Shown here one piece after another: positions 31,011 to 49,838 of a stretch of 64,000 nt of DNA; position 1 is the first letter of the stretch; the number at the start of each line of letters is the position of its first letter. Where the stretch lies: IMG/VR virus record IMGVR_UViG_3300027608_000011. One strand, 5' to 3'. The notes below the pieces were generated by a model. The model ran no database searches, was not told the DNA's origin, and saw only the letters and a program-made list of their open reading frames with translations. The stretch comes from a virus (taxonomy: Duplodnaviria; Heunggongvirae; Uroviricota; Caudoviricetes). The position numbers and the translations under genes are program-made.

Positions 31011-31450
31011 TTAGAGAATTTATCAATATTGTAGAATCCCTTGATAAGGGCATTACCGATGCATGGTTTAAAGACGGTGGATTTAAAACCTACAAGCGAC
31101 CAGCAAAAGAAAAATATGAGATTGCAGACAAACCTGGCACCATTGAAACACTGGAAGGGCCAGTTAAGTATCCTGCAGGCTACTATATTATGACCGGGCC
31201 AAAAGGAGAACAATATCCTATTACTCCTGAAAAGTTTGCAGATCTTAAAGATGATTTAGGTAACGGTGTTTGTACACCAAAAAAGATCATTAAATTTGCT
31301 AAGTTAGCAGATCATTCAGGATCAGTTGACACCAGCTGGGGTGAAAAGTTAAACTACAATCCCGGCGAAGATGTTATTGTGCGCCATGGCGAAAATGACT
31401 ACGGTGTTGTAAAGAAAGATATCTTTGCACAAACCTACGAGAAAATGTAA
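31007..31450 (+). CDS. hypothetical protein (147 aa)
   Basis: ORF. Confidence 0.45.
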   Translation: MIREFINIVESLDKGITDAWFKDGGFKTYKRPAKEKYEIADKPGTIETLEGPVKYPAGYYIMTGPKGEQYPITPEKFADLKDDLGNGVCTPKKIIKFAKLADHSGSVDTSWGEKLNYNPGEDVIVRHGENDYGVVKKDIFAQTYEKM

Positions 31451-31626
31451 TGATTAGACTCTGGCTAGTATTTGCTATCCTTGCCTTACTGATCCATCTT
31501 GGTATCACTGCCTGGAGAAAGATGGAAGGCAAGGAACGTTGGACATTGACAAAGTCTGTTGCGTATAGCATAATTGTCGCATCACTAACTATTTTAGTGA
31601 TGACTGTAATCGTAATTTTATTTTAA
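31450..31626 (+). CDS. small membrane protein (58 aa, below ORF-track cutoff)
   Basis: ATGA overlap start; two hydrophobic helices. Confidence 0.35.
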   Translation: MIRLWLVFAILALLIHLGITAWRKMEGKERWTLTKSVAYSIIVASLTILVMTVIVILF

Positions 31627-31634
31627 GGAAACAC

Positions 31635-32435
31635 ATGAAACGTATTTTGACTCTCTCCGTTCTTGCCGCGGCTGTGCTGGCAACAGGTTGTACTCGTATT
31701 GAAACTGGTGAAGTTGGTGTGCGAGTTGGATTCGACAAACAGGTTCAAAGTGGTGAACTGTTGCCCGGCTCATTCAATCAAAGTATTATTGGTGAAGTGT
31801 TAACTTTTCCAATCAAAGACGTCAATGTCACACTCAACGACATGACTCCAGTTGCCAAAGACAACTCGACCATGAAAGACTTTGATGCTGTGGTTGTCTA
31901 CAACATCAATCCTCAGCAAGTGAGTGAATTGTATGCAACAAAGAACAAGAGTTTCCACGCTGAGTTCAAAGGCGATACCTATGTGATGTACAACTACATT
32001 GTTCAGAACGCTCGTAACGCTATCTACAAAGCCGCTCGCAAGTACGAAGCCCTGGACATGGCAGATGCTCGTAGCGACATGGAAAACTTTATCAAGGAAG
32101 AAATTGTTCGCAATCTTGCTGAGGAAAAGTTGGACGGCAGTATCAGTATTAGTCAAGTGCTAATCCGTAATATTGTGCCAGCTGACAGTGTGGTAGCAAG
32201 TGCTAACGAATTGGTCAAGGCCAAAAACGAATTCAAGACTGAAGAAGTCAAAGTTGCTACTGCCCGTAAACGTAACGAAAGTATGCAGGCCAACCCAATG
32301 GCAATTCCTTTGCTGATGGCAGAAGCTCAAGCAGAAGCCATGCGTAAGTTGCCAGATGCTATTGCCAACTTCAAGGGCCAGACACTGGTCATCAACGGTG
32401 TTGTGACTCCTACTGTACAAACCAACGGTAAGTAA
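31635..32435 (+). CDS. SPFH/band-7 (HflK/C-like) domain lipoprotein
   Basis: lipobox LATGC; block VLTFPIKDVNVTLNDMTPVAKDNSTMKDFDAVVVYNINP typical of SPFH domains. Confidence 0.55.
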   Translation: MKRILTLSVLAAAVLATGCTRIETGEVGVRVGFDKQVQSGELLPGSFNQSIIGEVLTFPIKDVNVTLNDMTPVAKDNSTMKDFDAVVVYNINPQQVSELYATKNKSFHAEFKGDTYVMYNYIVQNARNAIYKAARKYEALDMADARSDMENFIKEEIVRNLAEEKLDGSISISQVLIRNIVPADSVVASANELVKAKNEFKTEEVKVATARKRNESMQANPMAIPLLMAEAQAEAMRKLPDAIANFKGQTLVINGVVTPTVQTNGK

Positions 32436-32436
32436 T

Positions 32437-32622
32437 ATGCTTTGGACTCTAATACTATTCGCACATGTTGGTATGATGAGTGACAAGGATTCTATGGCGC
32501 TGACTTCGGTGCCAGGATTCCGAAATCAACCAGAATGTTTAGCCGCCGGCAAAGCCGCTGAAAAGATGGCCTCTGGAACAACTAAGGTTATGAAATTTAC
32601 GTGTGTTGAGGTTACTAAATGA
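32437..32622 (+). CDS. small membrane protein (61 aa)
   Basis: ORF. Confidence 0.35.
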   Translation: MLWTLILFAHVGMMSDKDSMALTSVPGFRNQPECLAAGKAAEKMASGTTKVMKFTCVEVTK

Positions 32623-32634
32623 AGGACGATAAAG

Positions 32635-32877
32635 ATGTTTGATTGGTTTAAAAAGCCTGCCTATGCTAACGTAGTTCCAATTTTTCCAGATCAGGTTACA
32701 TACGTTGAACCGCCAAAGGCAGAAGAACTTCATTATAGTATTGGCATAACCAGTGAAGACAGGATAGCTTTAAAAATAGGCTATACTACACTTACTATGA
32801 ATCGAAAAGGCGTTGAACATTTAATTCAACAGCTATCTGTATTCCGTGATCAACTTGACGAAGAGGATGAAAAATGA
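32635..32877 (+). CDS. hypothetical protein (80 aa)
   Basis: ORF. Confidence 0.4.
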   Translation: MFDWFKKPAYANVVPIFPDQVTYVEPPKAEELHYSIGITSEDRIALKIGYTTLTMNRKGVEHLIQQLSVFRDQLDEEDEK

Positions 32878-33455
32878 AACAAGAACTAGATAAACTGTTG
32901 TGTGAGAAGTATCCAAAGATGATGGTCAACCGTAACAAGTCCATGATGGAAACTTGTATGTGTTGGGGTTTTAGTTGCGGCGATGGCTGGTTCAATATTC
33001 TGGACCAGCTCATGGGTAATATCCAACATCACATTGATTGGAAAGAGAAACAACGCACGTGGGCTAAAGAATATAATGAAATGGCCGCACAGGCCAAAGC
33101 CGGCAATTTTGATTTGTTTGAAGAAACTACAAAGGCTCAACCCAATGACAAGTATAAAGAACAACGCCTGGCGGAAATTGTTGCCGGAGACTTTAGAGAA
33201 GTACCCGAGTCCATTCCACAAGTGACCTTGGACCAAGTTAAAGAAAAGTTCGGTACACTGAGATTTTATTACTCGGGTGGTGATGACTATATCAGCGGAA
33301 TGGTTAGTCTAGCAGAAAGCATGACAGCAGTTACTTGCGAAGGTTGTGGAAATCCCGGCAAAAGTCGAGGTGGTGGATGGATTCATACTTACTGTGATCC
33401 TTGCGAAGAAGCACGTAACCAAGAATATAAAAAGGAAATTGAAGATGTTGCTTAA
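32874..33455 (+). CDS. hypothetical Cys-rich protein, paralog of 34531..34947
   Basis: shared blocks DGWFNILDQL / DGWYDIVDQL and LRFYYSGGD / LRVYWSGGD. Confidence 0.5.
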   Translation: MKQELDKLLCEKYPKMMVNRNKSMMETCMCWGFSCGDGWFNILDQLMGNIQHHIDWKEKQRTWAKEYNEMAAQAKAGNFDLFEETTKAQPNDKYKEQRLAEIVAGDFREVPESIPQVTLDQVKEKFGTLRFYYSGGDDYISGMVSLAESMTAVTCEGCGNPGKSRGGGWIHTYCDPCEEARNQEYKKEIEDVA

Positions 33456-33645
33456 CGGAAAACTTGTACTTTTAGCAAGTTCCATTTTTGCTATATTGAT
33501 ACTTGCAGGAAGTATAGTATTTTTATATCCGTCAGTTGGATATCGTGTATATTACAACTGTGACATATCAGAGATTAGTCCTGACTATCCCATGGAAGTT
33601 AAAGAAAAATGTCGTCAACTTCGACTCCACAAACACCTACTGTAA
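33445..33645 (+). CDS. small membrane protein (66 aa)
   Basis: SD AAAAGGAAA; hydrophobic N-terminus. Confidence 0.35.
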   Translation: MLLNGKLVLLASSIFAILILAGSIVFLYPSVGYRVYYNCDISEISPDYPMEVKEKCRQLRLHKHLL

Positions 33646-33836
33646 TAAAAGTGATATTATATTGGGATGATATTACAGTATCATGGGATCATACTGTAGA
33701 TCGAATTATTGCCTGTTTCGGCCTGCCCGGAGGTAAGTACACTACAGAGGTAAGTCAAGTTGGCGACTGGATGTCGTTTAATTTTTCAGATCCTAAAGAT
33801 GCTCTTGTAGCTAAATTAATGGTAGGTGGCGTATGA
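33609..33836 (+). CDS. small protein, tandem paralog A (ends PKDALVAKLMVGGV)
   Basis: conserved C-terminus shared with the next ORF. Confidence 0.45.
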   Translation: MSSTSTPQTPTVIKVILYWDDITVSWDHTVDRIIACFGLPGGKYTTEVSQVGDWMSFNFSDPKDALVAKLMVGGV

Positions 33837-34072
33837 CTTTAGAAGAAGAAGTTTTACAAAACGCAGTCCAAGCAGTAGTAAAACAAATAGATTTTAATGT
33901 GCTGGCAGATGCACTAGGCTGGACTAGAGTTGAATTAGTCAAAGTTAGTAATGATACATTAGAATGGTTTGACGATAATTGTCAAGGCGAATATCGTTAT
34001 CATCGTGACACTTTTATTTTTGAAAATCCCAAGGATGCTCTTATCGCTAAATTAATGTTAGGAGCAGTATGA
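33833..34072 (+). CDS. small protein, tandem paralog B (ends PKDALIAKLMLGAV)
   Basis: ATGA overlap; shared C-terminal motif. Confidence 0.45.
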   Translation: MTLEEEVLQNAVQAVVKQIDFNVLADALGWTRVELVKVSNDTLEWFDDNCQGEYRYHRDTFIFENPKDALIAKLMLGAV

Positions 34073-34305
34073 AAGAGTTAGAATTTACACAAGATAAATT
34101 TACAGTGAAGTGGATGGCACATTCAATTCCTATGCTGGTGTTTTATCATGCGGATGGCACAGATACTAGAATTGCGATGAACAAAAGAGATCTGCAAAAA
34201 GTAGGCAAAGAACTTTATGAGTTTATTAAATTTTATGAAGAAGATTTTAGTCCAAAAAATATTGATAAGTCGCTAACACAACAGGACTTTGAAGATGATA
34301 TGTGA
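34069..34305 (+). CDS. small hypothetical protein
   Basis: ORF. Confidence 0.4.
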   Translation: MKELEFTQDKFTVKWMAHSIPMLVFYHADGTDTRIAMNKRDLQKVGKELYEFIKFYEEDFSPKNIDKSLTQQDFEDDM

Positions 34306-34534
34306 ACTATCGGATGTTGAGATTATATCAGCTGAAGTAGCTGGTATGCAAGTTGACTACGAAATATTCAATCCCACATTCTTAGCTGTTAAGAACAATG
34401 AAATAGCAGAAGAAATTTTAAAATCTAATATGGGTATACGAGTACAAAAATTACCTTATACTATCGACAAATGTTCTTGCCTTGTGTTCGAGCATCAAGA
34501 AGATGCATTAATGGTATACCTAAGGTATAAATGA
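34289..34534 (+). CDS. small hypothetical protein
   Basis: ORF. Confidence 0.4.
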   Translation: MKMICELSDVEIISAEVAGMQVDYEIFNPTFLAVKNNEIAEEILKSNMGIRVQKLPYTIDKCSCLVFEHQEDALMVYLRYK

Positions 34535-34947
34535 AACAAGATTTAATTAAAGAGTTATATACGAAGTATCCAGATATGTTTCGTATTAGTAAAGATCACG
34601 AAGGGTTCATTAGACCTGCAAAGATATTATGTGATGATGGATGGTACGATATTGTTGATCAGTTGTGTTGGACGATTAGTCATTACGTAGACTACAAAAA
34701 TAACTACACCAATGAGCCAGTAAGCCCAGTGGTCTTTTCACTTATACGAGAAAAGATCGGTGGACTAAGAGTATATTGGTCTGGCGGTGACCTTTATGTT
34801 AGAGGCGTAATAGATATGGCTTGTAATATGTCTACCAAGGTCTGCGAAATATCTGGCAGACCTGGAGACTTATACGCTAAAAATGGCTGGTACAAAAGTG
34901 TTGCACACGATATGTACGAAGAGTTAGGCTTTCAAAAAGACGAATAA
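34531..34947 (+). CDS. hypothetical protein, paralog of 32874..33455
   Basis: shared sequence blocks. Confidence 0.5.
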   Translation: MKQDLIKELYTKYPDMFRISKDHEGFIRPAKILCDDGWYDIVDQLCWTISHYVDYKNNYTNEPVSPVVFSLIREKIGGLRVYWSGGDLYVRGVIDMACNMSTKVCEISGRPGDLYAKNGWYKSVAHDMYEELGFQKDE

Positions 34948-35544
34948 TCAATCTGGATTATCGAAATTCGTTTTTGGCGCTCTCATTTTACTTGGGGCAC
35001 CTGTTGCAATTACATCCCCAGTCGCTGGCGCTCCAAAGCCTGGATTGCCGTTAAAGCTACTTGGCGCTGAAGGTGCGCTTCCAAACCCGCTTCCGCCAAA
35101 GCTACTTGGTGCTGTTGCAATTGGTGTTGTGCCCCAGCTTGGTGCTGGTGCACCACTACCGCTGGAAGCACCGAAGCCCCCTGCCTGAGGTTGGCCAAAT
35201 GCTGGTGTCCCGCTCGCAAATCCTGTTGCTGGTGTTTGTGCTCCGCCATTGTTTGCTCCGTTTAGTTTTTCTTGTGTACGACCAAATGCCGCAATACCTA
35301 AAACTGCACCCATTGCAATGTGGAATAATCCAGCGCCTTGCAGGGTCAATGGGTTCCATTGTGTAATAGTAGTATGGGTTACTGTTTGCAGTAAACTCCA
35401 TAGTACTGGGAATACAACCATGTCCATGGTACAGATCAGCATATACATCCAACCCATCATTGGACGCCATTTGCTGTTCATCCAATCTTCTTTTTTTAGT
35501 TCGCTCTCGCTTTTAGTAACTTCTTCTGACATGGGTTTCTCCAT
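34948..35544 (-). CDS. membrane protein with long Gly/Ala/Ser/Pro/Phe-rich (FG-repeat-like) C-terminal tail
   Basis: 198 aa; N-terminal TM helices then low-complexity GFGASSGSGAPAPSWG... tail. Confidence 0.5.
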   Translation of the reverse strand: MEKPMSEEVTKSESELKKEDWMNSKWRPMMGWMYMLICTMDMVVFPVLWSLLQTVTHTTITQWNPLTLQGAGLFHIAMGAVLGIAAFGRTQEKLNGANNGGAQTPATGFASGTPAFGQPQAGGFGASSGSGAPAPSWGTTPIATAPSSFGGSGFGSAPSAPSSFNGNPGFGAPATGDVIATGAPSKMRAPKTNFDNPD

Positions 35545-35576
35545 TTAAATATACAAATATTTATCCAAAATGTCGA

Positions 35577-35605
35577 TTGACAATAAATCCAATTAAATAT
35601 ATAAT
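35577..35605 (+). promoter_or_regulatory. conserved early promoter, copy 1 (TTGACAATAAATCCAATTAAATATATAAT)
   Basis: member of an 8-copy family sharing hexamers and a 17 nt spacer. Confidence 0.6.
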
Positions 35606-35762
35606 ACTTAAACTATGAAGACTACTATTCAAATTGTTATCCCTAGACAGCGCACCCGTGCTCATAAGGTTCTGTTTGACCAAAATTCACCCTTTAAACA
35701 AAAAGTAGTACAATCAAAGGTGCAGTATACTCGCAGGGCTAAACACCCTGGAAAATCTGTCG

Positions 35763-35972
35763 ATGACAACTAAAAAGCAAATTGAGCAAGATATTCATAA
35801 TTATATTGCCCATACGTTAACCAAAAGGACCGGGGGCAACCCCCAACGAAAGATGTTGGCATTAGTGTATGTTGTTGGGTACTTGCAAAGTATATTAGCA
35901 GAATCGTTGTATGAAAATCCTACTTATATTCAGCAAAATTTGCTGGCTAGACTTAAAAAAGACAAAGATTGA
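35763..35972 (+). CDS. small early protein (69 aa)
   Basis: ORF behind promoter copy 1. Confidence 0.45.
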   Translation: MTTKKQIEQDIHNYIAHTLTKRTGGNPQRKMLALVYVVGYLQSILAESLYENPTYIQQNLLARLKKDKD

Positions 35973-35997
35973 CAATAAATCCAATTAATTATATAAT
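35969..35997 (+). promoter_or_regulatory. conserved early promoter, copy 2
   Basis: TTGACAATAAATCCAATTAATTATATAAT. Confidence 0.6.
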
Positions 35998-36039
35998 ATA
36001 CGCATAGTAAGAAATAAGGTTGTTCCAAAAAGACAAAGA

Positions 36040-36068
36040 TTGACATTAAATTGAATTAATTGTATAAT
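36040..36068 (+). promoter_or_regulatory. conserved early promoter, copy 3 (within a 70 bp tandem duplication)
   Basis: TTGACATTAAATTGAATTAATTGTATAAT; downstream ACGCATAGTAAGAAATAAGGTTGTTCCAAAAAG is duplicated at 35998 and 36068. Confidence 0.6.
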
Positions 36069-36089
36069 ATACGCATAGTAAGAAATAAG

Positions 36090-36370
36090 GTTGTTCCAAA
36101 AAGCGAGACACGCGAAAGCAAAAAGTCAAGCAAGGAACATTAAATGGGCAATTGCCCAGCCAATCGTATTAGGGGTTACCAACTCCAGTAGGTAACTTAG
36201 CAAGAGACTAATCTGTGGCCGCACAGACTCTTCTAAGTTACAAGAAACCTTGAGATAATATCAGGAGGACGCTGGAGCAAGTTGGCCTGTAATGTGGTTG
36301 ATAGACAAGTCTGTGGACGACACAGTAGGGCAGGTTCGAAACTGCGATCTCTATCAAACATCCCCTGGTT
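36090..36370 (+). ncRNA. promoter-driven ORF-less transcript (candidate sRNA) containing a tRNA-like fragment
   Basis: no SD or ORF between promoter copies 3 and 4; hairpins CTGTG-GCCG-CACAG and GGTTACC..GGTAAC; acceptor-like TGATAGA/TCTATCA pairing around a GCAGGTTCGAAACTGC T-arm-like hairpin. Confidence 0.35.
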
Positions 36371-36374
36371 TTGG

Positions 36375-36403
36375 TTGACAATTAATCCAATTAATTGTAT
36401 AAT
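36375..36403 (+). promoter_or_regulatory. conserved early promoter, copy 4
   Basis: TTGACAATTAATCCAATTAATTGTATAAT. Confidence 0.6.
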
Positions 36404-36431
36404 ATACACTTACACACTAAGGAGCCCAGCG

Positions 36432-36575
36432 ATGCAATACACATTGATCACCAGCAAGGGCAACATCATGCAATTTTATCTCAAAGAAGTAGCAGATCTG
36501 TATCAAAGCCTACAAGGCGGTGTTGTAATAACACAACAGATTTTGGTTGACAAAACCGTGCCAGTCGTAGTATAA
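36432..36575 (+). CDS. small early protein (47 aa)
   Basis: SD TAAGGAG then ATG; the longer tracked ORF 36282..36575 is a spurious N-terminal extension. Confidence 0.45.
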   Translation: MQYTLITSKGNIMQFYLKEVADLYQSLQGGVVITQQILVDKTVPVVV

Positions 36576-36607
36576 TTAGACATACTGAAACAATCGGAGC
36601 ATAAAAT

Positions 36608-36805
36608 ATGGGTTACAAAGTGTTTGAAAAGTCCGCATACGAGCCCCGTAAAGGGCTGGAAGGCCCATTCCATTACCCCAATGGGCGGGTACTGTACTAT
36701 GACCCTATAGCGGGCAAATACTGGGATCCACGCACCGATTTTTACGTGGAATATGAAGAAGTCCAGGACCTGATGGGCGAGATTTTTGCCCGAATTAGTG
36801 CATAA
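36608..36805 (+). CDS. small early protein (65 aa)
   Basis: SD GGAG. Confidence 0.45.
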   Translation: MGYKVFEKSAYEPRKGLEGPFHYPNGRVLYYDPIAGKYWDPRTDFYVEYEEVQDLMGEIFARISA

Positions 36806-36810
36806 ATTGG

Positions 36811-36839
36811 TTGACATTAAATCCAATTAATTGTATAAT
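36811..36839 (+). promoter_or_regulatory. conserved early promoter, copy 5
   Basis: TTGACATTAAATCCAATTAATTGTATAAT. Confidence 0.6.
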
Positions 36840-36875
36840 ATACACATAGACAGCAACAAACAGGAGTTAAAATTG

Positions 36876-37367
36876 AATTGTTCCCCTACTCTTACAGCCA
36901 ATGAATTTAAGACCATTCACAATGCATTGTGTGATTTGGATTCTGTTACACAATCTTTGGAAGACGTACTGAATAAGGATCTGTATATTAAATTGGCCAA
37001 GGCAACTAGTCAGATCCGCGAAGGCCTGGCCAATGCTTATGAGCAAGACAACAAAAGTTTCGACGAAAAAATGGACCATTACGACAGCGTTCGCACAGAG
37101 CTTGGCCTGACTGCAACCTGGAGTATTTTTGAAATAAACAATTTGTCAGAACGCCATCCATTTGGCGATGTATTGCAGGTCGCATACGTGGATCATTGGG
37201 GCGGCAGTCCAGTGTTTGTTGAAGTAAATGGATCAACATGGGCGGCATTGTATGTTGCGGCCAATGCGGCCATTCGCGACAGTGGCGACGAGCATCACAG
37301 TTTCATTGAAGAATTTAAGCCTAATCCCAAGAACCCGCAACAACTGTTTCTCCATACAGGAAGTTAA
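36876..37367 (+). CDS. early protein (about 164 aa), probable TTG start
   Basis: tracked ORF start 36831 lies inside the promoter -10; SD ACAGGAG at 36863 precedes an in-frame TTG. Confidence 0.45.
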   Translation, partial: NCSPTLTANEFKTIHNALCDLDSVTQSLEDVLNKDLYIKLAKATSQIREGLANAYEQDNKSFDEKMDHYDSVRTELGLTATWSIFEINNLSERHPFGDVLQVAYVDHWGGSPVFVEVNGSTWAALYVAANAAIRDSGDEHHSFIEEFKPNPKNPQQLFLHTGS

Positions 37368-37368
37368 T

Positions 37369-37614
37369 ATGAAAGTAAAAGATCTCATTGCAGAGTTGCA
37401 AGGCTTTGACCAGGACGCAGAAGTCCATTACGAATACTGTTACGGCGACCATTGGCGTACCAATGTAGCCCCAATGGTGCAGAGCATTGACGAGGGCGTT
37501 GTGGAGTACAGTGAGTACCACCGTATGGACAAGATGGCCAACTATGAGGACAGCTACGATGAGGACACGGGCGAGCCCAAAGAAGCCATACGCCGAGTAG
37601 TGGTATTGAGTTAA
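37369..37614 (+). CDS. small early protein (81 aa)
   Basis: SD CAGGAAG then ATG. Confidence 0.45.
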   Translation: MKVKDLIAELQGFDQDAEVHYEYCYGDHWRTNVAPMVQSIDEGVVEYSEYHRMDKMANYEDSYDEDTGEPKEAIRRVVVLS

Positions 37615-37628
37615 CTAAGGACATTGAA

Positions 37629-37835
37629 ATGAAGCAAGACTACACCATGTACATCTACAAGACGGACCGTCGTACCAAGACCAGCGAGCGGCTGTACAGT
37701 ACCACAGTTTGGACGGGTAGAGACGAAGCAGGCATGCAGAGAGAAGTTGAAGAACTGCACCTGCATCACTATCCCCGTAGCCAGTTCCGTATGGAATACA
37801 TCGCCTCGATGAAGACTGTTTCGGTTGACAATTAA
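37629..37835 (+). CDS. small early protein (68 aa)
   Basis: SD AAGGA. Confidence 0.45.
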   Translation: MKQDYTMYIYKTDRRTKTSERLYSTTVWTGRDEAGMQREVEELHLHHYPRSQFRMEYIASMKTVSVDN

Positions 37836-37853
37836 TCCAATTAATTGTATAAT
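37825..37853 (+). promoter_or_regulatory. conserved early promoter, copy 6
   Basis: TTGACAATTAATCCAATTAATTGTATAAT. Confidence 0.6.
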
Positions 37854-37885
37854 ATACACATAGACACTAAAAAGGAACGCGAAAA

Positions 37886-38194
37886 ATGAACACTGAACTT
37901 AGTCAATATACTGAAGCAATCAAAGCAGATTACTCCAAATGGAGTGACAAGGCTAACATTAATCCAGCAATGAAACGTGAATTTGAACAAAGTGTGGGTC
38001 TTGACTTTGGCCGCAAATACGTTAAAATTATAGTCAAAGGTTCCGTCCACAGTTTTGTGGTTTTGGAAAACACTAAAAAGTTCGCCAAAGGTGACATCCT
38101 TAAGGCCGCAACATTCAGTAGCCCTAGCACTAATTTTGCACGTGGTAACGTGTTTACACTAGACGAGTCCAAAGTCCAGTGGACAGGCGCTTGA
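37886..38194 (+). CDS. small early protein (102 aa)
   Basis: SD AAAGGAA. Confidence 0.45.
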   Translation: MNTELSQYTEAIKADYSKWSDKANINPAMKREFEQSVGLDFGRKYVKIIVKGSVHSFVVLENTKKFAKGDILKAATFSSPSTNFARGNVFTLDESKVQWTGA

Positions 38195-38219
38195 CATTAA
38201 ATCCAATTAATTGTATAAT
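38191..38219 (+). promoter_or_regulatory. conserved early promoter, copy 7
   Basis: TTGACATTAAATCCAATTAATTGTATAAT. Confidence 0.6.
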
Positions 38220-38246
38220 ACTTGTATTGTAACAAAGGAGCAGACA

Positions 38247-38525
38247 ATGCTAACTATCCAAGAAGTTAACTCAGCAATTATGACACAGTCGTGGACTAAC
38301 ACAGAACTGTCTAGTATGATTGATGCAGTCAAGTGGAACCGCAATGCCCTGGCACGCCAGATCAAACGAAGCATTGGTCGTGGTGACAATGTAGAGTTCA
38401 CATCCAGCAAGACAGGACGTCTGACACGTGGCTTTGTCACCAAGGTTGCTATCAAGTACGTTACAGTAGACACTGGCATGGGCCTGTGGCGTGTTCCTGC
38501 TAACATGCTGACAGTGGTGGCTTAA
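38247..38525 (+). CDS. small early protein (92 aa)
   Basis: SD AAAGGAG then ATG. Confidence 0.45.
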   Translation: MLTIQEVNSAIMTQSWTNTELSSMIDAVKWNRNALARQIKRSIGRGDNVEFTSSKTGRLTRGFVTKVAIKYVTVDTGMGLWRVPANMLTVVA

Positions 38526-38663
38526 ATGAAAGTCGTGTATAACGGTTTGCTGGGCGGATGGTATATTGTGCGAGGCGCACACCAGACACCAATCAGTGGC
38601 CGCTTTGACAGCAAAGAATTAGCTCTTGCACATCTTCGCCGTCGTAATCCATTGCATATCTAA
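38526..38663 (+). CDS. small early protein (45 aa, below ORF cutoff)
   Basis: ATG overlapping upstream TAA. Confidence 0.3.
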   Translation: MKVVYNGLLGGWYIVRGAHQTPISGRFDSKELALAHLRRRNPLHI

Positions 38664-38671
38664 GGAATAAT

Positions 38672-38920
38672 ATGTCAATTCGAATTAACGGTTTGCGCCA
38701 AAAAGAAATTCAGATGTTGAATACCATGTGGGAGTTTCAGGAATTGGAAGACCTCGAAGCATGGCAACAAACGTTGCGCCCCAGCGACTACCGTCTTAGC
38801 AAACAACTCATGAACATGGTTTTAATTGAATCACTGGATCAGCATATGGCCAAAGAAACTAAATTTCCGGATGCAAAGAAAGTGTTGTCTAAGTATATGC
38901 TAAACTCTTCAGGACTATGA
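38672..38920 (+). CDS. small early protein (82 aa)
   Basis: SD AAGGAA. Confidence 0.45.
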   Translation: MSIRINGLRQKEIQMLNTMWEFQELEDLEAWQQTLRPSDYRLSKQLMNMVLIESLDQHMAKETKFPDAKKVLSKYMLNSSGL

Positions 38921-39075
38921 TGTTGTACGATTGGGTTTTGATTCTTGTCCTGACAGCTGGCCCGTTGCCTAATCCAAACGTAGAAGTGATTAGCTATCAT
39001 GCTACTAAACAGGAATGTTTGGCAGTAAAAGGACAAAAGAAGAATTATATTTGTTTACCAATAGATAGGAATTGA
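38917..39075 (+). CDS. small membrane peptide (52 aa)
   Basis: ATGA overlap; hydrophobic helix. Confidence 0.3.
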   Translation: MMLYDWVLILVLTAGPLPNPNVEVISYHATKQECLAVKGQKKNYICLPIDRN

Positions 39076-39076
39076 T

Positions 39077-39394
39077 ATGGGATTTTTTAGTTGGCGATGT
39101 GCGAAATCAGATAAGCCGGTAATGGCCGAGTGCGCTGTTGGAGGCAGTTCGTGGGAGTTTGCCAGTAAGGTGGTAGTGCTGTTTAAAAACGGAGACCGCG
39201 TTTCAGGCACATATGATGGTTATGGGCGGGTAGACGGACTTGAACTAGTTGACCTTCCGGAAGAACGATGGCGAATGGTTATTGAAAAATACTACAACAA
39301 CGAGACGTTTGATCAACTGTCACAAAATAAACATGACAGAGGTCAGGGTTTCTTTTACAATGATGAAGACCTAGTAGAGGAATTTGGAGAATAA
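39077..39394 (+). CDS. small early protein (105 aa)
   Basis: ORF. Confidence 0.45.
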   Translation: MGFFSWRCAKSDKPVMAECAVGGSSWEFASKVVVLFKNGDRVSGTYDGYGRVDGLELVDLPEERWRMVIEKYYNNETFDQLSQNKHDRGQGFFYNDEDLVEEFGE

Positions 39395-39396
39395 TT

Positions 39397-39738
39397 ATGG
39401 GATTAGATATGTATGCGGTTGCCCGCAAAGAAGGCAAAGATCAAGTTGAAATTGCTTACTGGCGTAAGCACCCTAACCTGCATGGTTGGATGGAAAAACT
39501 GGCTGAATCAAAAAATCTAGAGTACGGCACATTCAACGGCGTTGAATTAGAACTGACCTGGGACGACTTAGATGAGTTAGAACTTACTGTTAAAGAAAAG
39601 TTGTTACCCAGTACTGGTGGATTTTTCTTTGGGAATAATGCAGACGAAGAATATTTTAACGACGACTTGCAATTTATTGGCGAAGCACGGTTAAAGATGG
39701 CCGCTGGTTATCAAGTTTTTTATGACAGTTCATGGTGA
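39397..39738 (+). CDS. small early protein (113 aa)
   Basis: ORF. Confidence 0.45.
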   Translation: MGLDMYAVARKEGKDQVEIAYWRKHPNLHGWMEKLAESKNLEYGTFNGVELELTWDDLDELELTVKEKLLPSTGGFFFGNNADEEYFNDDLQFIGEARLKMAAGYQVFYDSSW

Positions 39739-39741
39739 TGT

Positions 39742-39993
39742 ATGAAAGTAGTTAGCATTGATCCCAAAGACAGAGAGATTCAAAAAAATAAACTTGAGCT
39801 ACTAGAAGTACTAGACGAAATGCGAACTCAAATTGAGTCTGGGAACATAGTAGAGTTTGTTGCAGTTAGCATCTGCGAAAATGGAGAATGCCAAATTCAT
39901 GCTAAGGTAGGAGACCTTCCAACAGGAATAGGACTATTTGAAATTGGCAAGCACATGATGATTCAGCAAGAATCATATGATGATATTGAGTAA
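39742..39993 (+). CDS. small early protein (83 aa)
   Basis: ORF. Confidence 0.45.
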   Translation: MKVVSIDPKDREIQKNKLELLEVLDEMRTQIESGNIVEFVAVSICENGECQIHAKVGDLPTGIGLFEIGKHMMIQQESYDDIE

Positions 39994-40183
39994 CCTTAAG
40001 AGAAATAGTATGAACGACCGAATTACATTATTGGCATTGAAGGCAAGTGATCCTAAAACAGGTTGGCTAGATCGTCAAAAGTTCGCCGAATCGATTGTTC
40101 GAGAATGTGCCAATGTTGCCGCTGAACACGATGCATTGGACATTTACGAAGAGATTAGAGAACATTTCGGAGTTGAAGAATGA
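39977..40183 (+). CDS. small protein, GVEE-terminus family member 1
   Basis: ends EEIREHFGVEE; stop overlaps next start. Confidence 0.45.
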   Translation: MMILSNLKRNSMNDRITLLALKASDPKTGWLDRQKFAESIVRECANVAAEHDALDIYEEIREHFGVEE

Positions 40184-40344
40184 ATAAGTCTTTTATCGTT
40201 GTTTGTACTGAGTGTTCCGAAGAACATGAAACTGAAACCGTTAAATTCTTAAATATAGAGGAAGACATTCAAGGTCGTGATATCATGTACTTTGAATGCC
40301 CTGTAACTAACTTGGAGGCTAGAAGTCTGGTCTATGCAAAATGA
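40180..40344 (+). CDS. small Cys-containing protein (54 aa)
   Basis: ATGA overlaps on both sides; CTECS...CPV. Confidence 0.35.
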   Translation: MNKSFIVVCTECSEEHETETVKFLNIEEDIQGRDIMYFECPVTNLEARSLVYAK

Positions 40345-40568
40345 ACGAACGAATTCGAGAACTTGCTGAACAGGCTACATCTATTCAAGGCCCCACTCCT
40401 TACAATCCACTTACCTTTGAAGTGTTTGATAAAGAAAAGTTTGCCGAGTTGATTGTGCAGGAATGTATTGATATTATTGCTCCTTACACTGTTAGAATGA
40501 GCAGACCCGGTGAAGAATACTTACATCCTATCAGCGAGATTAAGAAAAATTTTGGAGTTGAAGAATGA
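40341..40568 (+). CDS. small protein, GVEE-terminus family member 2
   Basis: ends EIKKNFGVEE; also shares KFAEL/SIVQECI block with member 1. Confidence 0.45.
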   Translation: MNERIRELAEQATSIQGPTPYNPLTFEVFDKEKFAELIVQECIDIIAPYTVRMSRPGEEYLHPISEIKKNFGVEE

Positions 40569-40807
40569 ACGATTATGATATGACTATACACACGAATCCC
40601 GATGCAAGAGCCTGGGCTAAATTCTTTACTGAAAAGTATAAAGTATGGTCGGAAGATGGTGTTGAATCTGACTCTGAGGCCTTAATGACTGCATGGTTCG
40701 CCAATGCTATGATGGCGATGCACGATCATTTAGTATTGAAAGGTAATCCAATCAATGGAGATCATGCTCAATATCTTTTAGATAAAGAAAATGGAGTTGA
40801 AGAATGA
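40565..40807 (+). CDS. small protein, GVEE-terminus family member 3
   Basis: ends LDKENGVEE. Confidence 0.45.
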   Translation: MNDYDMTIHTNPDARAWAKFFTEKYKVWSEDGVESDSEALMTAWFANAMMAMHDHLVLKGNPINGDHAQYLLDKENGVEE

Positions 40808-40938
40808 ATGAATTTTTAAAAGAACTTGCAGTTAACGCAGGAGCGCCTAACGAAGTTATTAATGAACTTTGGTTTAATATTTTTTGCCAAAAGTTTGCAC
40901 ATCTATTGATGATTGAAATGGAAGAGGTATCAGAATGA
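40804..40938 (+). CDS. small protein (44 aa)
   Basis: ATGA overlaps. Confidence 0.3.
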   Translation: MNEFLKELAVNAGAPNEVINELWFNIFCQKFAHLLMIEMEEVSE

Positions 40939-41198
40939 CAGGTTATAAATATAAACGTGAAAAAGCCAAGGATATAGACGAGGCCGAACAAGAGAATCAA
41001 ATGAACGAAATTGTAACAGACACTGATCAGGCACTAGCGGACTTCTTTGCCAAGGGAGGCAAAGTGCAGTACATTGCCACAGGCGTTAGTGGAAATCCCG
41101 ATGGTATTAGTTATTCTGCATGGGGTGCTGGCCGTAAAAAATTGCCAGCGATGCCAGCAACGTTGGATCCAGCTGAATCTTCTGAAGATGAATCTTAA
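40935..41198 (+). CDS. small acidic protein (87 aa)
   Basis: ORF. Confidence 0.45.
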   Translation: MTGYKYKREKAKDIDEAEQENQMNEIVTDTDQALADFFAKGGKVQYIATGVSGNPDGISYSAWGAGRKKLPAMPATLDPAESSEDES

Positions 41199-41949
41199 AA
41201 GTAAACTGGCATTAATTTTACTGTTGGTAACAGTAAATTCCCATGCCTTTCTGTTACCAACAAAAGTCGAAGTTAAAGATAGCAGGCTTGGAAAAATAGT
41301 CGAAGTCCCGGTTGAAACTTGGACTAACTGGCGGCCCGGGCCAACTATCATATTGGCACATACTTGTGCAGGTATAATACGTCCTATGGACACTGATTGG
41401 GCCAATACTATTAAGAGTTGGGGTTACAATGTTGTTATACCAGACAGTTTTAATCCACGCGGCGTCAAGGAAACATGTTTACTTCCAAGAACAGTAAGTA
41501 TGACGCAACGAAATGAAGATATCTCAAGTGTGGCAGAATGGGTATGGAAGCAAAGTTGGCACAAAGGACCAATTGGTCTTATTGGTTTTAGTAATGGTGG
41601 TTGGTTAGTATTGGAAGCTAGTAACAGGCCATTGACCAATAAAATTGCGGCAATGGTTGCGTATTATCCATGGTGTGATGTTAAGTTTCATGGTAAACCT
41701 AAAATCCCCGTACAGATACATATAGGCAAACAAGACTCATGGACTCCTGCTGAACAATGCGAACCATTAGGTTCTGTCGTGGAACTTAATATATATGAAA
41801 ATGCTTACCATAGTTTTGACAGGCATGCACCTAGAAGAGTAAGGCCCGGGCACGGTGAAAAACTTCATGTGCTAGAGTATAATCCAATGGCAACTAAATT
41901 GGCGGCCGAGAGGACTAAGGACTTTTTCCAGCATTACTTAAAGGATTAA
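41188..41949 (+). CDS. secreted alpha/beta hydrolase (dienelactone-hydrolase/esterase-like)
   Basis: start moved to MNLKSKLAL signal peptide; nucleophile elbow GFSNGG; downstream Asp/His candidates. Confidence 0.6.
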   Translation: MNLKSKLALILLLVTVNSHAFLLPTKVEVKDSRLGKIVEVPVETWTNWRPGPTIILAHTCAGIIRPMDTDWANTIKSWGYNVVIPDSFNPRGVKETCLLPRTVSMTQRNEDISSVAEWVWKQSWHKGPIGLIGFSNGGWLVLEASNRPLTNKIAAMVAYYPWCDVKFHGKPKIPVQIHIGKQDSWTPAEQCEPLGSVVELNIYENAYHSFDRHAPRRVRPGHGEKLHVLEYNPMATKLAAERTKDFFQHYLKD

Positions 41950-42019
41950 TATCCTTTTGAATAATTGCTTGATCTATATTCTTGAATTATCTCAGAAATA
42001 GTATTAATTAAATTGATTA

Positions 42020-42250
42020 TCACGCCCATGATTTGTTCCTTTTATAATCGTACTCTTTGGTCCAGTGTTCTATATCTCCCACGGATTGTGGATATTTAGA
42101 GACTAGGAATAATTCTAGTTCTGTGCTATAATTAGACTGTGAAAAAAGAGTTTTAACATATGATTTGATTTTGTCTAACATTGTTTTATTCTCCGTAGAA
42201 ACACTTATAGCGTTTCTACTAATATTTATGTTGCACCGCAATAAACCCAA
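42020..42250 (-). CDS. hypothetical protein (76 aa)
   Basis: ORF on opposite strand in an AT-rich intergenic gap. Confidence 0.3.
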
Positions 42251-42265
42251 AAGAATAGGAAATAT

Positions 42266-42856
42266 ATGAGCTTAGTACCAATTGTAGTCGAACAAACCGC
42301 CAGGGGCGAACGTAGCTACGACATTTATAGTCGCTTACTTAAAGATAGAATTATTCTATTAGAAGGTGAAGTGCATGATCAAATGGCCAATCTTATTGTG
42401 GCCCAATTATTGTTTTTGGAAAGTGAAGAGCCGGCCAAAGACATCACCTTGTTTATAAATAGTCCGGGTGGAGTCGTAACCGCAGGGCTGGCAATTTATG
42501 ATACTATGCAGTATATTAAATGTGATGTTGCTACTATTGTAATGGGACAAGCCTGCTCTATGGGTAGTTTGTTAGCCCAAGCTGGCGCAACAGGTAAACG
42601 TAGTATTTTACCAATGGCCAGGCATATGATTCACCAGCCAAGCGGCGGGGCAAGAGGACAAGCAACTGACATGCAGATTCAAGTTAACGAGATTCTAGAA
42701 ATGAAAAAGAATCTAACAGACATTTATGTATTGCACAATAGCAAACGTAAAACAGTTAAGCAGTTAAGCACTGATATGGAACGAGATTTCTTTATGAGTG
42801 CTTCGCAAAGTGTTGAATACGGCTTGGCCGATCAAGTTATTACAAAAAGGCAATAG
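42266..42856 (+). CDS. clpP: ATP-dependent Clp protease proteolytic subunit
   Basis: 196 aa; colinear with bacterial ClpP including the catalytic Ser block [10 protein letters not shown] and His block HQPSGG. Confidence 0.9.
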
Positions 42857-42857
42857 T

Positions 42858-42965
42858 ATGGATATAATTGGATTTTTAATGTTAGCTGTTTTAGCCGGCG
42901 TGTTAATCTTTGTATTTTGCAAAATACTTGACGTATTATTTAATGATGATGGACCATTTAATTAA
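42858..42965 (+). CDS. small membrane peptide (35 aa)
   Basis: ATG two nt after clpP stop; single TM helix. Confidence 0.3.
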   Translation: MDIIGFLMLAVLAGVLIFVFCKILDVLFNDDGPFN

Positions 42966-42975
42966 GGAGAAAATT

Positions 42976-43683
42976 ATGTTTGGTAACAATTATGCTGATT
43001 ATTCTGTTAGCTACCGTAGCGCAGAACAAATCAATGAATCAATGGGTAGAGTATACTTCTACATGATGCTGGCCGTACTTAATAGTATGATTGTCAGTTA
43101 CTTTGTAGGTACTACACCAGAGCTATTGCAATTCTTTTTTACGGGTATATTGAAATGGGTTGTAATTTTTGCACCTATTGCGGCAGTGTTTGGTGTAATG
43201 TATGTGCTTGCACAGAATCCACCACGTGGTACTTGTCTAGCATTATTGCATGGATTTGCGGCACTAATGGGCCTGAGCTTTGCAATGATTTTTAAAGTGT
43301 ATACTATGGGATCCATTTTTGGAGCATTCATGAGTGCGGCGATCTTGTTTGGTGTAATGAGTGCATATGGATATTTTACCAAACGAAGTTTAGACAGTAT
43401 TGGTAAGTTTATGTTTATCGGATTGATTGCTATCATTATTGCCAGCATTGTTAATATCTTTATTGGTAGTACTGTGATGCAAATGGTTATCAGTGCCCTT
43501 GCAATTATTATCTTCTTGGGACTAACAGCCTACGACACACAACAGATCCGTGAAATGGTCAGTGATGAAAATAGCACTAGTGCCATGGAAGTAAGTGGCG
43601 CCTTAACTTTGTATATGGATTTTATTAATATCTTTATTAATTTGTTACAGCTATTTGGTATTGGTAACAGCAAAGACGACTAA
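42976..43683 (+). CDS. Bax-inhibitor-1/YccA family membrane protein (FtsH modulator family)
   Basis: start at Met after SD TAAGGAG; seven TM helices; C-terminus ALTLYMDFINIFINLLQLFGIGN parallels YccA SLYVSLYNIFVSLLSILGF. Confidence 0.75.
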   Translation: MFGNNYADYSVSYRSAEQINESMGRVYFYMMLAVLNSMIVSYFVGTTPELLQFFFTGILKWVVIFAPIAAVFGVMYVLAQNPPRGTCLALLHGFAALMGLSFAMIFKVYTMGSIFGAFMSAAILFGVMSAYGYFTKRSLDSIGKFMFIGLIAIIIASIVNIFIGSTVMQMVISALAIIIFLGLTAYDTQQIREMVSDENSTSAMEVSGALTLYMDFINIFINLLQLFGIGNSKDD

Positions 43684-44042
43684 TGCAAATATCCGGGTTC
43701 GGTGTTGATATGGTGGAAAGAGAACGTGTTGAACGCATGTTCTCTAGAAATCCAAAACGTTTAATAGACTTTTTATTTTCCGATTTGGAGAAACTAGAAG
43801 TTGACAAACTACAGGGTTCTGCTATAATAACATACATAACAAAACGCATTGCAGTCAAAGAAGCATATTTTAAAGCATTGGGTACAGGGATACAAAACTT
43901 AAGAGATTGGCAAAAAGTTTGGATCGAGCACGACAAATTTGGCGCACCTATTTTAAAAAATGTTCATAATAGAACAGGGATTATATCAATCACGGATACC
44001 AAAACAACAGCATGTGCCGTTGTTATTTTAGAAAAAATTTAA
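43683..44042 (+). CDS. acpS: holo-[acyl-carrier-protein] synthase (4'-phosphopantetheinyl transferase)
   Basis: 119 aa; ISGFGVDMVERERV and AVKEAYFKALGTGI blocks match AcpS LGLGTDIVEIARI / AVKEAAAKAFGTGI. Confidence 0.85.
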   Translation: MQISGFGVDMVERERVERMFSRNPKRLIDFLFSDLEKLEVDKLQGSAIITYITKRIAVKEAYFKALGTGIQNLRDWQKVWIEHDKFGAPILKNVHNRTGIISITDTKTTACAVVILEKI

Positions 44043-44043
44043 A

Positions 44044-44616
44044 ATGAAAATTAGTTTAAGAAAAGCAAGTCAGTTACAAACAAGTATCAATGACATGATC
44101 AAAGGCATCAGTCTTAAAGATTCTGTTGAACTAACAGAGTTCGAAGACGTAGATAAATCACTAGTTAATGCACGACAAGACCTTTTGAATTCTATGCAAC
44201 GAATTCAAAATCTGTACACAGCTCTATATCATATTCGCAATTTGATTGCCCATGCAAATGCAACCAGCGGCATTAACATCAAGCTGGGTGAAATTGCCAT
44301 GTATGATAAACGTATGGGATTGTTTAATCAAATTGGTTCACTGAAACCAATGGGTGACATTGATGTTATCAAAGGCAAATTAGACAAGATTAAGACCCGT
44401 GCGGAACCATCACGTGTTAACCTGTATGGTAGTATAGATACAGTAGATACATCAGTGTTGAAACCAGAAGATGTAGTCGGCTTTAAGCAAGCGGTACTTC
44501 AAGTGAAGAAAGTGAAAACTAAACTTCAGGATGAGGTATTGGAACTAAATGTTAAGACCGAAATTGACCTAAGTGAAGATGCTGAAAAGTTTCTAGCTTC
44601 GGAAGGTCTGGTATAA
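44044..44616 (+). CDS. hypothetical protein (190 aa)
   Basis: ORF. Confidence 0.5.
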   Translation: MKISLRKASQLQTSINDMIKGISLKDSVELTEFEDVDKSLVNARQDLLNSMQRIQNLYTALYHIRNLIAHANATSGINIKLGEIAMYDKRMGLFNQIGSLKPMGDIDVIKGKLDKIKTRAEPSRVNLYGSIDTVDTSVLKPEDVVGFKQAVLQVKKVKTKLQDEVLELNVKTEIDLSEDAEKFLASEGLV

Positions 44617-44899: not shown

Positions 44900-44928
44900 T
44901 TGACAGTTAAATCCATTTAATGTATAAT
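44900..44928 (+). promoter_or_regulatory. conserved early promoter, copy 8 (TTGACAGTTAAATCCATTTAATGTATAAT)
   Basis: same family as copies 1-7. Confidence 0.55.
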
Positions 44929-44934
44929 AGTACT

Positions 44935-45288
44935 ATGACTACAAATGCTTTCATTCTAAGTTGGGATTGTACAGGGCTTGAAGCCGCAGTCCCTATTACT
45001 CAATATGAGCAATTGGATCACCAAAATTTGCTTAATGTTATAGCAGGCAAGCCAGAAGAAGAAAATCCCGTAGGCAACATTTTGTTTAGACTGAAAATTA
45101 GGGCCCAGTTCAATAGTCAAAGATTTTACGAAATATATGCAATAGACTGTGAAGAAGAGCTAACCCAAGATGATTGGCATAGTATGTTTAAAGATGCACC
45201 ACAGGCCATGGCCGAGTTAATCCGGGAAAGAGGAATTAAGATTTTTTGTAATCGTCGTAGTAGTAACCAACAAGTAGTAATATCATGA
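44935..45288 (+). CDS. hypothetical protein (117 aa), possibly leaderless
   Basis: first plausible ATG lies 7 nt after the -10 hexamer; the tracked start 44920 is inside the -10. Confidence 0.4.
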   Translation: MTTNAFILSWDCTGLEAAVPITQYEQLDHQNLLNVIAGKPEEENPVGNILFRLKIRAQFNSQRFYEIYAIDCEEELTQDDWHSMFKDAPQAMAELIRERGIKIFCNRRSSNQQVVIS

Positions 45289-46109
45289 GAGTTAATTTAG
45301 TTAGTGACCTGCATTTGAATTTTGCAGATTTAGTATTGCCGGGTGGCGATGTATTAGTAATGGCAGGCGACATTATGGAAGCGGGACATCTTAGGAGAGC
45401 CGACAACGCTAAAAAAGATACGTTCCTTGCTGATAGGTATAGGCGCTTTATTAGCGAAGAATTATCCAAGTACAATAAGGTAGTTTATATTTGTGGTAAC
45501 CACGAGCACTATAACAATGAGTGGGAAGACACTCACATTCGTTTAAAAGCTGAATTGCCAGACCATGTTAGTTTGTTGGAATCCGAAAGTGTACGTATCG
45601 GTGATGTTGACTTTTTTGCAGGAACAATGTGGACTGACTGCAATAAAGGTGATCCGTTAACTATGCGTGTTCTTGCACACAATATGAACGATTATCATAC
45701 TATTAAATTTAAAGATGGCGTTCAAGTAAACACTACCTACGGCGGTAGCTACTGGACTAGTAAATTGCAACCCGTTCACACAAAAGAAGTATTTCATAAA
45801 ACAGTAAATGATCTTAAAACTTTTCTTAATGGAAAAGAAAAGGTTGTAGTTGTAAGTCATCATGGACCTACTCATATGAGTATTGATGAATTTTATAAAG
45901 ATGATTTTCACATGAACGGAGGTTACGTCAGTGACCTTAGTGACCTTATACTAGACAATCCTCAGATAAAATACTGGTTGCATGGACATACACATCAGCA
46001 AGTAGATTATATGGTAGGTGAAACTCGTGTATTGTGTAATGCTCGCGGCTATCACGGGCATGAGCGTAGTTCGATTAACTATGATGCCAATTTTGGCTTT
46101 GATATCTAA
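45285..46109 (+). CDS. calcineurin-like metallophosphoesterase
   Basis: SDLHLNF, AGDIME and CGNHEHY motifs (D-x-H / GD / GNHE). Confidence 0.8.
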   Translation: MRVNLVSDLHLNFADLVLPGGDVLVMAGDIMEAGHLRRADNAKKDTFLADRYRRFISEELSKYNKVVYICGNHEHYNNEWEDTHIRLKAELPDHVSLLESESVRIGDVDFFAGTMWTDCNKGDPLTMRVLAHNMNDYHTIKFKDGVQVNTTYGGSYWTSKLQPVHTKEVFHKTVNDLKTFLNGKEKVVVVSHHGPTHMSIDEFYKDDFHMNGGYVSDLSDLILDNPQIKYWLHGHTHQQVDYMVGETRVLCNARGYHGHERSSINYDANFGFDI

Positions 46110-48997: not shown

Positions 48998-49006
48998 ATA
49001 ATTGTT

Positions 49007-49837: not shown

Positions 49838-49838
49838 A

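Follow-up and report, generated by a model that had tools for sequence, protein, structure and literature searches.

From our profile searches, selection estimates and neighbourhood comparisons, we conclude that a 12-kb span of the viral record IMGVR_UViG_3300027608_000011 probably carries three modules of cellular-type genes, each inherited separately, and not one device (probability about 0.6). The modules are the protease subunit ClpP, a membrane protein of the BI-1/TMBIM family (hereafter BI-1), and an SPFH-domain protein with its small upstream partner tm58. The span belongs to the shuffled accessory part of an uncultured jumbo-phage genome; the whole 64,000-nt stretch analysed here is called the window. 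All four genes are functional and under purifying selection: the ratio of nonsynonymous to synonymous substitution rates (dN/dS) relative to related sequences is 0.05 for ClpP, 0.12-0.16 for BI-1, 0.05-0.11 for SPFH and 0.11-0.36 for tm58. The genes are the following.

31450-31626, + strand: tm58, a 58-residue membrane hairpin of two helices and a basic loop, which is the constant partner upstream of SPFH
31635-32435, + strand: SPFH/Band-7 protein of 266 residues (PF01145), a probable lipoprotein with predicted export to the periplasmic side
42266-42856, + strand: ClpP, a cellular-type proteolytic subunit without propeptide (PF00574)
42976-43683, + strand: BI-1, a 7-helix membrane protein of the BI-1/TMBIM family, YbhL/YetJ type (PF01027)

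A reading of this DNA made from its letters alone (the sequence-only reading) had named a ClpP, a BI-1/YccA-like protein and an SPFH-domain lipoprotein. The open reading frames (ORFs) lie where it had placed them, and the profile searches described below bear out all three domain assignments, with lipidation of the SPFH protein probable. The claim that these genes belong together fared differently. Within the window, the SPFH gene is separated from clpP by 9.8 kb and about 35 small ORFs. For a wider view, we took the 80 best-matching IMG/VR loci for each of ClpP, BI-1 and SPFH (about 240 in all), clustered all ORFs of the fetched loci into families, and dereplicated the loci to 52 centred on ClpP, 49 on SPFH and 38 on BI-1; the counts thus describe best-matching loci and not complete genomes.

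Within 10 kb of ClpP, these loci encoded a metallophosphoesterase (38 of 52), Hsp20 (32), ClpS (31), a protein of about 500 residues (31), ClpX (27) and an SprT-like peptidase (26), with BI-1 found in four and SPFH in two. Around SPFH everything but tm58 was variable. The hairpin gene stood directly upstream in 41 of the 49 dereplicated loci (72 of 80 before dereplication), and the families present within 10 kb included a DNA ligase in 15 loci, ClpP, the third most frequent family at this distance, in 14, and BI-1 in 6, all three genes occurring together in 4. The BI-1-centred loci had no dominant neighbour (ClpP in 3 of 38, SPFH in 2). In most comparisons of dereplicated loci, linkage of the three genes came to 4-12%, and on the 367-kb contig 3300023174_002543 the approximate positions are 204 kb for ClpP, 220 kb for SPFH and 279 kb for BI-1. 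We interpret the nearness of the three genes as residual synteny, because it is no more frequent than that of other genes of the shuffled region, and because unrelated genes, a DNA ligase among them, separate the three in the lineage whose SPFH sequence is nearest to that of the window.

Several points weigh against the conclusion that the modules are separate. In this same SPFH-closest lineage the three genes recur close to each other in varied orders, namely SPFH-ClpP-...-BI-1 in loci L219-221, L231-236 and L289, and SPFH-BI-1-...-ClpP in loci L227, L230 and L242; such recurrent nearness could reflect selection for linkage and not shared ancestry. In the window itself, ClpP and BI-1 belong to a string of five genes, ClpP-pep35-BI-1-AcpS-orf190, which are probably co-transcribed because the gaps between them measure only -1 to 10 nt. 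No ClpX, ClpS, Hsp20 or SprT-like peptidase gene is present within the 64-kb window (ClpX and ClpS were searched by tblastn), which leaves its ClpP apart from the partners seen in relatives. Finally, channel activity, membrane topology and lipidation are inferred from homology.

The SPFH protein and its hairpin partner

The SPFH protein matches Band_7 (PF01145) with 59.8 bits (cut-off 23.6, E=4.7e-16) over profile positions 2-174 of 176. Its N-terminus, MKRILTLSVLAAAVLATGC, combines a positive N-region (MKR) and a hydrophobic core with an A-T-G-C lipobox (…VLATGC), in which Cys19 is invariant among 21 homologues. Position -3 of the lipobox is Ala and not the classic Leu, while the Kuttervirus homologue has a canonical LLSGC. 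These features point to a probable lipoprotein, in agreement with a match to the PHROG family phrog_200, annotated 'lipoprotein' (E ~7.6e-31), whose Kuttervirus and cyanophage members are 28-41% identical over roughly 90% of their length. SPFH lipoproteins of phages thus already have database annotations. A sequence search of the PDB gave no match. AlphaFold2 models of the SPFH protein and of BI-1 reached a mean predicted local distance difference test score (pLDDT) of 47.8 and 42.4, respectively, the input alignments (76-98% identical to the query) being too shallow for good models; the 3-D coordinates are unreliable.

The SPFH protein of the window is 97% identical to that of locus L222 despite a synonymous divergence (dS) of 0.79, with a dN/dS of 0.05, which implies a strong constraint that is unusual for a phage accessory gene. 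Recent recombination as an explanation for the 97-99% identities among SPFH proteins was therefore rejected, at least for L222. Two small ORFs at 39977-40183 and 40341-40568 belong to one family, which is also frequent near SPFH in the relatives.

The hairpin protein tm58 has no Pfam match and no NfeD signal. Its pairing with SPFH nevertheless extends to other phages. The freshwater cyanophage BUCT-ZZ01 encodes a 58-residue hairpin upstream of a 41%-identical SPFH protein, and in the Salmonella Kuttervirus SJ3 an unannotated ORF for a two-helix hairpin of about 70 residues (L309 2226-2444; NC_024122.1 ~147815-148033) runs into the start of the SPFH gene, which is annotated as 'lipoprotein'; this ORF is the counterpart of tm58. 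The pairing is thus found in three unrelated phage groups, i.e. the relatives of the window, a cyanophage and Kuttervirus. As in the window, the phrog_200 proteins of Kuttervirus (Vi01-like) phages and of some cyanophages have a lipobox and an upstream hairpin gene; in the Kuttervirus records this hairpin gene is unannotated, whereas the phrog_200 protein is annotated as 'lipoprotein' or 'SPFH domain band 7 family protein'. Hairpin and SPFH protein form a cleanly defined two-gene unit, which also exists in Kuttervirus phages, well-studied viruses that infect Salmonella and E. coli.

A small membrane-protein gene directly upstream of an SPFH gene is likewise found in the stomatin-NfeD (PH1511/PH1510) operon, where the SPFH protein is of the SPFH1/2 type, and prokaryotic SPFH1b genes pair with NfeD1b proteins that bear a ClpP-class protease domain (PMC2636767). 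However, the NfeD partner consists of a membrane segment and an OB-fold, to which a ClpP-like domain may be added, while tm58 has only 58 residues and two helices, with neither an OB-fold nor an NfeD signal. Since the hairpin lacks NfeD or any other profile signal, the tm58-SPFH pair is not a classical SPFH-NfeD operon as described in PMC2636767. Together, tm58 and SPFH probably assemble into a two-gene, oligomeric membrane scaffold on the periplasmic face.

Such a pair might serve as an envelope device for superinfection exclusion or envelope stabilisation, apart from proteolysis. This would be compatible with separate inheritance of the three modules, and is in line with the conservation of hairpin and SPFH in three unrelated phage groups and, at the level of annotation only, with the genes adjoining the pair in SJ3, which are annotated as 'superinfection exclusion' and 'Rz-like spanin'. 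Phage lipoproteins such as Llp of T5 act in exclusion. The best PADLOC match reached only E=8e-4 and 16.7 bits, and we regard such a role as unlikely. A link to a defence system was rejected, as there was no meaningful PADLOC match.

The BI-1 protein and the gene string around it

BI-1 matches Bax1-I (PF01027) with 181.6 bits (cut-off 34.1, E=2.1e-53) over the full profile (3-207 of 207). Seven helices are predicted, a count that comes only from the secondary structure of the low-pLDDT AlphaFold2 model, and the first helix is preceded by some 25 residues that form a predicted cytoplasmic tail at the N-terminus. The gene has an AAGGAG Shine-Dalgarno sequence 6 nt ahead of its ATG. Of the E. coli MG1655 paralogues compared, YbhL is closer (36% identity over 228 residues, E=5e-42) than YccA (24% over 171 residues, E=4e-11). 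Comparison with YetJ of Bacillus subtilis (PDB 4pgr, E=3.6e-12), a pH-sensitive Ca2+ leak channel, revealed that the motifs YDxxQI and LYxDFINxF are kept. Within them, Asp187 (AYDTQ) and Asp215 (LYMDFINIF) of BI-1 match the two-aspartate pH sensor of YetJ (D171/D195). Both residues are invariant in 21 phage homologues and are also present in YbhL.

Unlike YbhL and YetJ, BI-1 of the window is encoded by a phage and belongs to a large, internally similar clade, which comprises at least 188 IMG/VR loci at 67-79% identity. Among metagenome proteins, homologues at E<=1e-10 number at least 8,000; those listed, 120 in all, are 77-98% identical. In contrast, when 185,579 species genomes of bacteria and archaea were scanned, the best chromosomal homologues reached at most 47% identity and were mostly from Alphaproteobacteria, with the exception of one 2.5-kb fragment binned into a metagenome-assembled genome from a lake. 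Only nine of 50,697 GenBank phage records match BI-1, all of them short or unannotated, and no PHROG family matches the protein. In the literature searched, mostly without subscription journals, we found no description of a phage-encoded BI-1, YccA, TMBIM or PF01027 protein. This large phage-specific clade is the unusual item of the span and, within that literature, appears to be unreported.

On the strength of its homology to YetJ, BI-1 would most likely insert into the inner membrane of the host as a pH-gated cation (Ca2+/H+) leak channel, where it would buffer ion and membrane stress and help the infected cell to stay viable and energised throughout a lengthy jumbo-phage infection. A parallel is offered by the poxvirus protein GAAP, a viral homologue of TMBIM4 with cation-channel and anti-apoptotic activity (PMC4416878). 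Both proteins are virus-encoded members of the TMBIM/BI-1 superfamily, and GAAP provides an analogy for keeping a host cell alive; it comes from a eukaryotic virus and a eukaryotic subfamily, however, and the analogy is a conceptual one. We tentatively propose, as a possibility less likely than not, that the phage clade represents the first TMBIM 'keep-the-cell-alive' cation channel known in bacterial viruses, a counterpart of GAAP conserved across many environmental jumbo phages, which would steady membrane potential, pH or Ca2+, or blunt abortive-infection responses that kill through membrane collapse, in the course of long infections. If such a channel works, bacterial viruses would, like poxviruses, have captured an ancient cytoprotective family, and the phage protein would offer a tractable and strongly conserved subject for asking what bacterial BI-1 proteins do beyond YccA and YetJ. 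A further extension, in which BI-1, the hairpin-SPFH scaffold and ClpP form a phage membrane-proteostasis unit, is less likely.

The sequence-only reading had taken another direction. In E. coli, both HflK/C and YccA, a substrate and modulator of FtsH, bind this protease, and BI-1 was proposed to act as YccA and the SPFH protein as HflK/C, jointly restraining host FtsH in order to protect phage membrane proteins or to time lysis, with ClpP in the same kit. Some features agree with this proposal: YccA and BI-1 are of the same superfamily, of similar length and alike in having a cytoplasmic N-terminal tail; the SPFH protein carries an export signal and shares with HflK/C the SPFH domain and a predicted periplasmic orientation; and the genes are clustered in a minority of the relatives. 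The subfamily tests, on the other hand, fail for both proteins. BI-1 scores 37.3 bits against the YccA equivalog NF007765, which has a cut-off of 353, and YccA, the more distant paralogue, has Glu and Ser at the two positions where BI-1 keeps its aspartates. The SPFH protein has neither a match to the NCBIfam HflK or HflC profiles at E<=1e-3 nor, even at E<=10, a BLASTP match to the E. coli proteins themselves, and it differs in design, with a lipoprotein-type signal in place of an N-terminal transmembrane anchor and a single gene in place of the HflK+HflC duo. In addition, the three genes are seldom linked, and the conserved partners of ClpP are cytosolic Clp components. Neither the window nor 3.5 Mb of DNA from related phages yielded a homologue of FtsH, HflK or HflC; seeming FtsH matches proved to be the AAA+ cores of ClpX genes. 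We therefore consider a joint FtsH toolkit decidedly unlikely, and retain the separate inheritance of the modules as our preferred explanation.

The remaining genes of the string to which BI-1 belongs are as follows.

42858-42965, + strand: pep35, a 35-residue single-helix micro-ORF between clpP and the BI-1 gene, intact in 8 contigs
43683-44042, + strand: holo-acyl-carrier-protein synthase (AcpS-type phosphopantetheinyl transferase; PF01648, E=4.8e-13)
44044-44616, + strand: orf190, a protein of 190 residues without profile match, the last gene of the tight string

The ATG of pep35 lies 1 nt past the ClpP stop codon, and at the 3' end of pep35 the stop codon overlaps the Shine-Dalgarno sequence (AAGGAG) that precedes BI-1. 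The ORF is intact in 8 near-identical contigs, in which changes are conservative and hydrophobic, and its sole Pfam match, DUF3096, is below threshold. At the same position, locus L139 has a divergent transmembrane counterpart with the C-terminal pattern C..K.(I/L)D.L..(N/D)D in common. The transmembrane peptide that the sequence-only reading had counted in its toolkit is thus probably a real micro-gene, but a lineage-specific one. We rejected pep35 as a general partner of BI-1, since a small transmembrane ORF occupies this position only in the two lineages in which ClpP adjoins BI-1, whereas the remaining loci have none upstream of BI-1.

AcpS exceeds the cut-off of TIGR00516 (63.0 vs 59.8). 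Its start overlaps the stop codon of BI-1, which places it in the tight string. As it forms a singleton family among the roughly 240 related loci, it seems to have entered this lineage recently. We noticed no gene for an acyl-carrier protein in its vicinity. The protein encoded by orf190 has no match in Pfam, PHROG, NCBIfam or PADLOC, and the gene order around it is kept in near-identical contigs. Taken as a whole, the ClpP-pep35-BI-1-AcpS-orf190 string is a lineage-specific rearrangement and not a conserved operon.

ClpP and its usual neighbourhood

ClpP matches CLP_protease (PF00574) with 258.5 bits (cut-off 20.2, E=4.5e-77) and passes NCBIfam PRK00277/NF001368 (304.8 bits vs a cut-off of 249), while its score against the TIGR00493 equivalog is slightly below the cut-off (293.2 vs 308.6). 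It can be aligned over its full length to solved ClpPs (252.8 bits for E. coli 1tyf), which it closely resembles in the N-terminal loop region. The triad is intact, with Ser98 (GQACSMG), His123 (MIHQP) and Asp174 (ERDFF) aligned with the motifs of the solved proteins, and there is no membrane segment, OB-fold or export signal. With the ClpP of the jumbo phage Atu_ph07 (gp676) it shares 67.5% identity. A role as prohead (head-maturation) protease was rejected based on the NF045542 score (98.4 bits vs a cut-off of 120); PHROG matches to 'head maturation protease' are weaker than those to the cellular ClpP models and are due to the fold that both kinds have in common.

The identities of the genes in the ClpP islands of the relatives are backed by Pfam and by tblastn with E. 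coli ClpX and ClpS, and the ClpX proteins found in this way are 50-56% identical to that of E. coli. The presence of ClpX, ClpS, Hsp20 and SprT-like peptidase genes around ClpP agrees with published accounts of jumbo-phage Clp systems (Atu_ph07, Rak2-like; Iyer et al. 2021). Atu_ph07 encodes ClpX, ClpA, ClpB, ClpP and ClpS (PMC6102473), and cellular-type ClpP with ClpS in jumbo phages has been described as probable host-directed proteolysis (PMC7824862). Unlike in these islands, ClpP of the window is detached and adjoins BI-1. The sole remnant of its usual neighbourhood in the window is the following gene, which encodes the commonest ClpP neighbour in the relatives (within 5 kb in 37 of 52 dereplicated loci).

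45285-46109, + strand: calcineurin-like metallophosphoesterase (PF00149, E=5.2e-10)

Because ClpX and ClpS adjoin ClpP in the relatives, its job would be the cytosolic, ATP-dependent degradation of host or phage proteins, with ClpP providing the proteolytic chamber for unfoldases that are presumably of the ClpX or ClpA type. A protease system run by the phage is plausible, given that the relatives carry ClpX, ClpS, Hsp20 and the SprT-like peptidase beside ClpP. This result adds little to, and fits, the published picture of jumbo-phage Clp systems.

A membrane protease module similar to that of stomatin and NfeD (STOPP), in which the SPFH scaffold and the tm58 anchor recruit a ClpP-fold protease with BI-1 as client or regulator, is very improbable: ClpP does follow SPFH directly on the 3' side in loci L219-221 and L231-236 (gap 18-150 nt) and in L289 (about 300 nt), is within 10 kb of SPFH in the 14 of 49 loci mentioned above, weakly matches NfeD1b_N (24 bits vs a cut-off of 40) and has a precedent in the SPFH1b-NfeD1b pairing with a ClpP-class domain (PMC2636767), but it is a soluble ClpP of canonical type, tm58 lacks any NfeD signal, the genes are far apart in the window and SPFH is rare in the ClpP-centred loci, and the two proteins would be in different compartments, as SPFH would be periplasmic and ClpP has no export signal.

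Two further features of the ClpP neighbourhood were observed among the 52 loci. The protein of about 500 residues has no Pfam match and is encoded directly upstream of ClpP in 22 loci (e.g. L178 8024-9568), and a gene for a bS21-like ribosomal protein, a call made by eye, lies within 5 kb of ClpP in 17 loci (e.g. L144 1414-1635).

The source phage and other features of the window

Several signs indicate that the window comes from a large phage. It contains 22 tRNA genes, all on the + strand and interleaved with protein genes between 505 and 20387; the set includes tRNA-Ile(tat) and four different tRNA-Arg, and 17 of the 22 are supported by Rfam. One protein strongly matches phrog_850, an RNA-binding protein family of large myoviruses. 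A 219-kb ENA contig encodes a ClpP protein identical to that of the window, a contig of 216 kb does so for the SPFH protein, and IMG/VR contigs related to the window reach 383 kb. Megablast of the whole span against GenBank phages gave no match, and in a more sensitive blastn search the clpP gene alone matched, so that these searches revealed no cultured phage close to the window at the DNA level.

A large phage is also indicated by the many cellular-type accessory genes described further below and by the following two genes.

34948-35544, - strand: holin-like protein (GTA_holin_3TM, phrog_3427), which has a long tail rich in Gly, Ala, Pro and Ser
59505-64000, running off the window end: tail-fibre-like ORF of more than 1,500 residues, starting MSYTVNKSDG, with 32-residue (96-nt) repeats

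The holin-like gene is on the strand opposite to almost all its neighbours. The ORF from 59505 has a Gly-rich, collagen-like stretch near 63.0 kb, which, together with the repeats, makes a tail fibre its probable product. As the ORF continues past the end of the window, it was absent from the ORF list and its region seemed empty; a non-coding element in the ORF-poor stretch at 59.4-63.3 kb was rejected, as this is a single long ORF leaving the window.

Accessory genes of cellular type are dense, at 5816-7006 (- strand), 23561-24718, 28071-30062, 41047-41949, 47879-50630, 51238-52493 and 53584-54090. They encode a radical SAM enzyme, a SulP-family permease, an S8 subtilase of 663 residues, a dienelactone hydrolase and an Old Yellow Enzyme-type flavin oxidoreductase, as well as a D-Ala-D-Ala carboxypeptidase, a UDP-glucose dehydrogenase, a HamA_HO-like protein, a dCMP deaminase and a 6-pyruvoyl-tetrahydropterin synthase (QueD-like). 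A run of paralogues at 16108-19231 consists of four successive ORFs of 250-280 residues, all of which match L074, and three of them L049 as well; of the four, only the first two were scanned, and both match phrog_35201.

On the + strand there are ten promoters that fit the sigma-70 consensus perfectly (TTGACA, 16-18 nt, TATAAT; 12 of 12 matches). Eight are located within 35577-38219, ahead of small ORFs between the SPFH gene and clpP, and the remaining two at 43801-43828, within the AcpS gene, and at 44900-44928, just ahead of the ORF at 44920. These copies look like a repeated strong early-promoter element.

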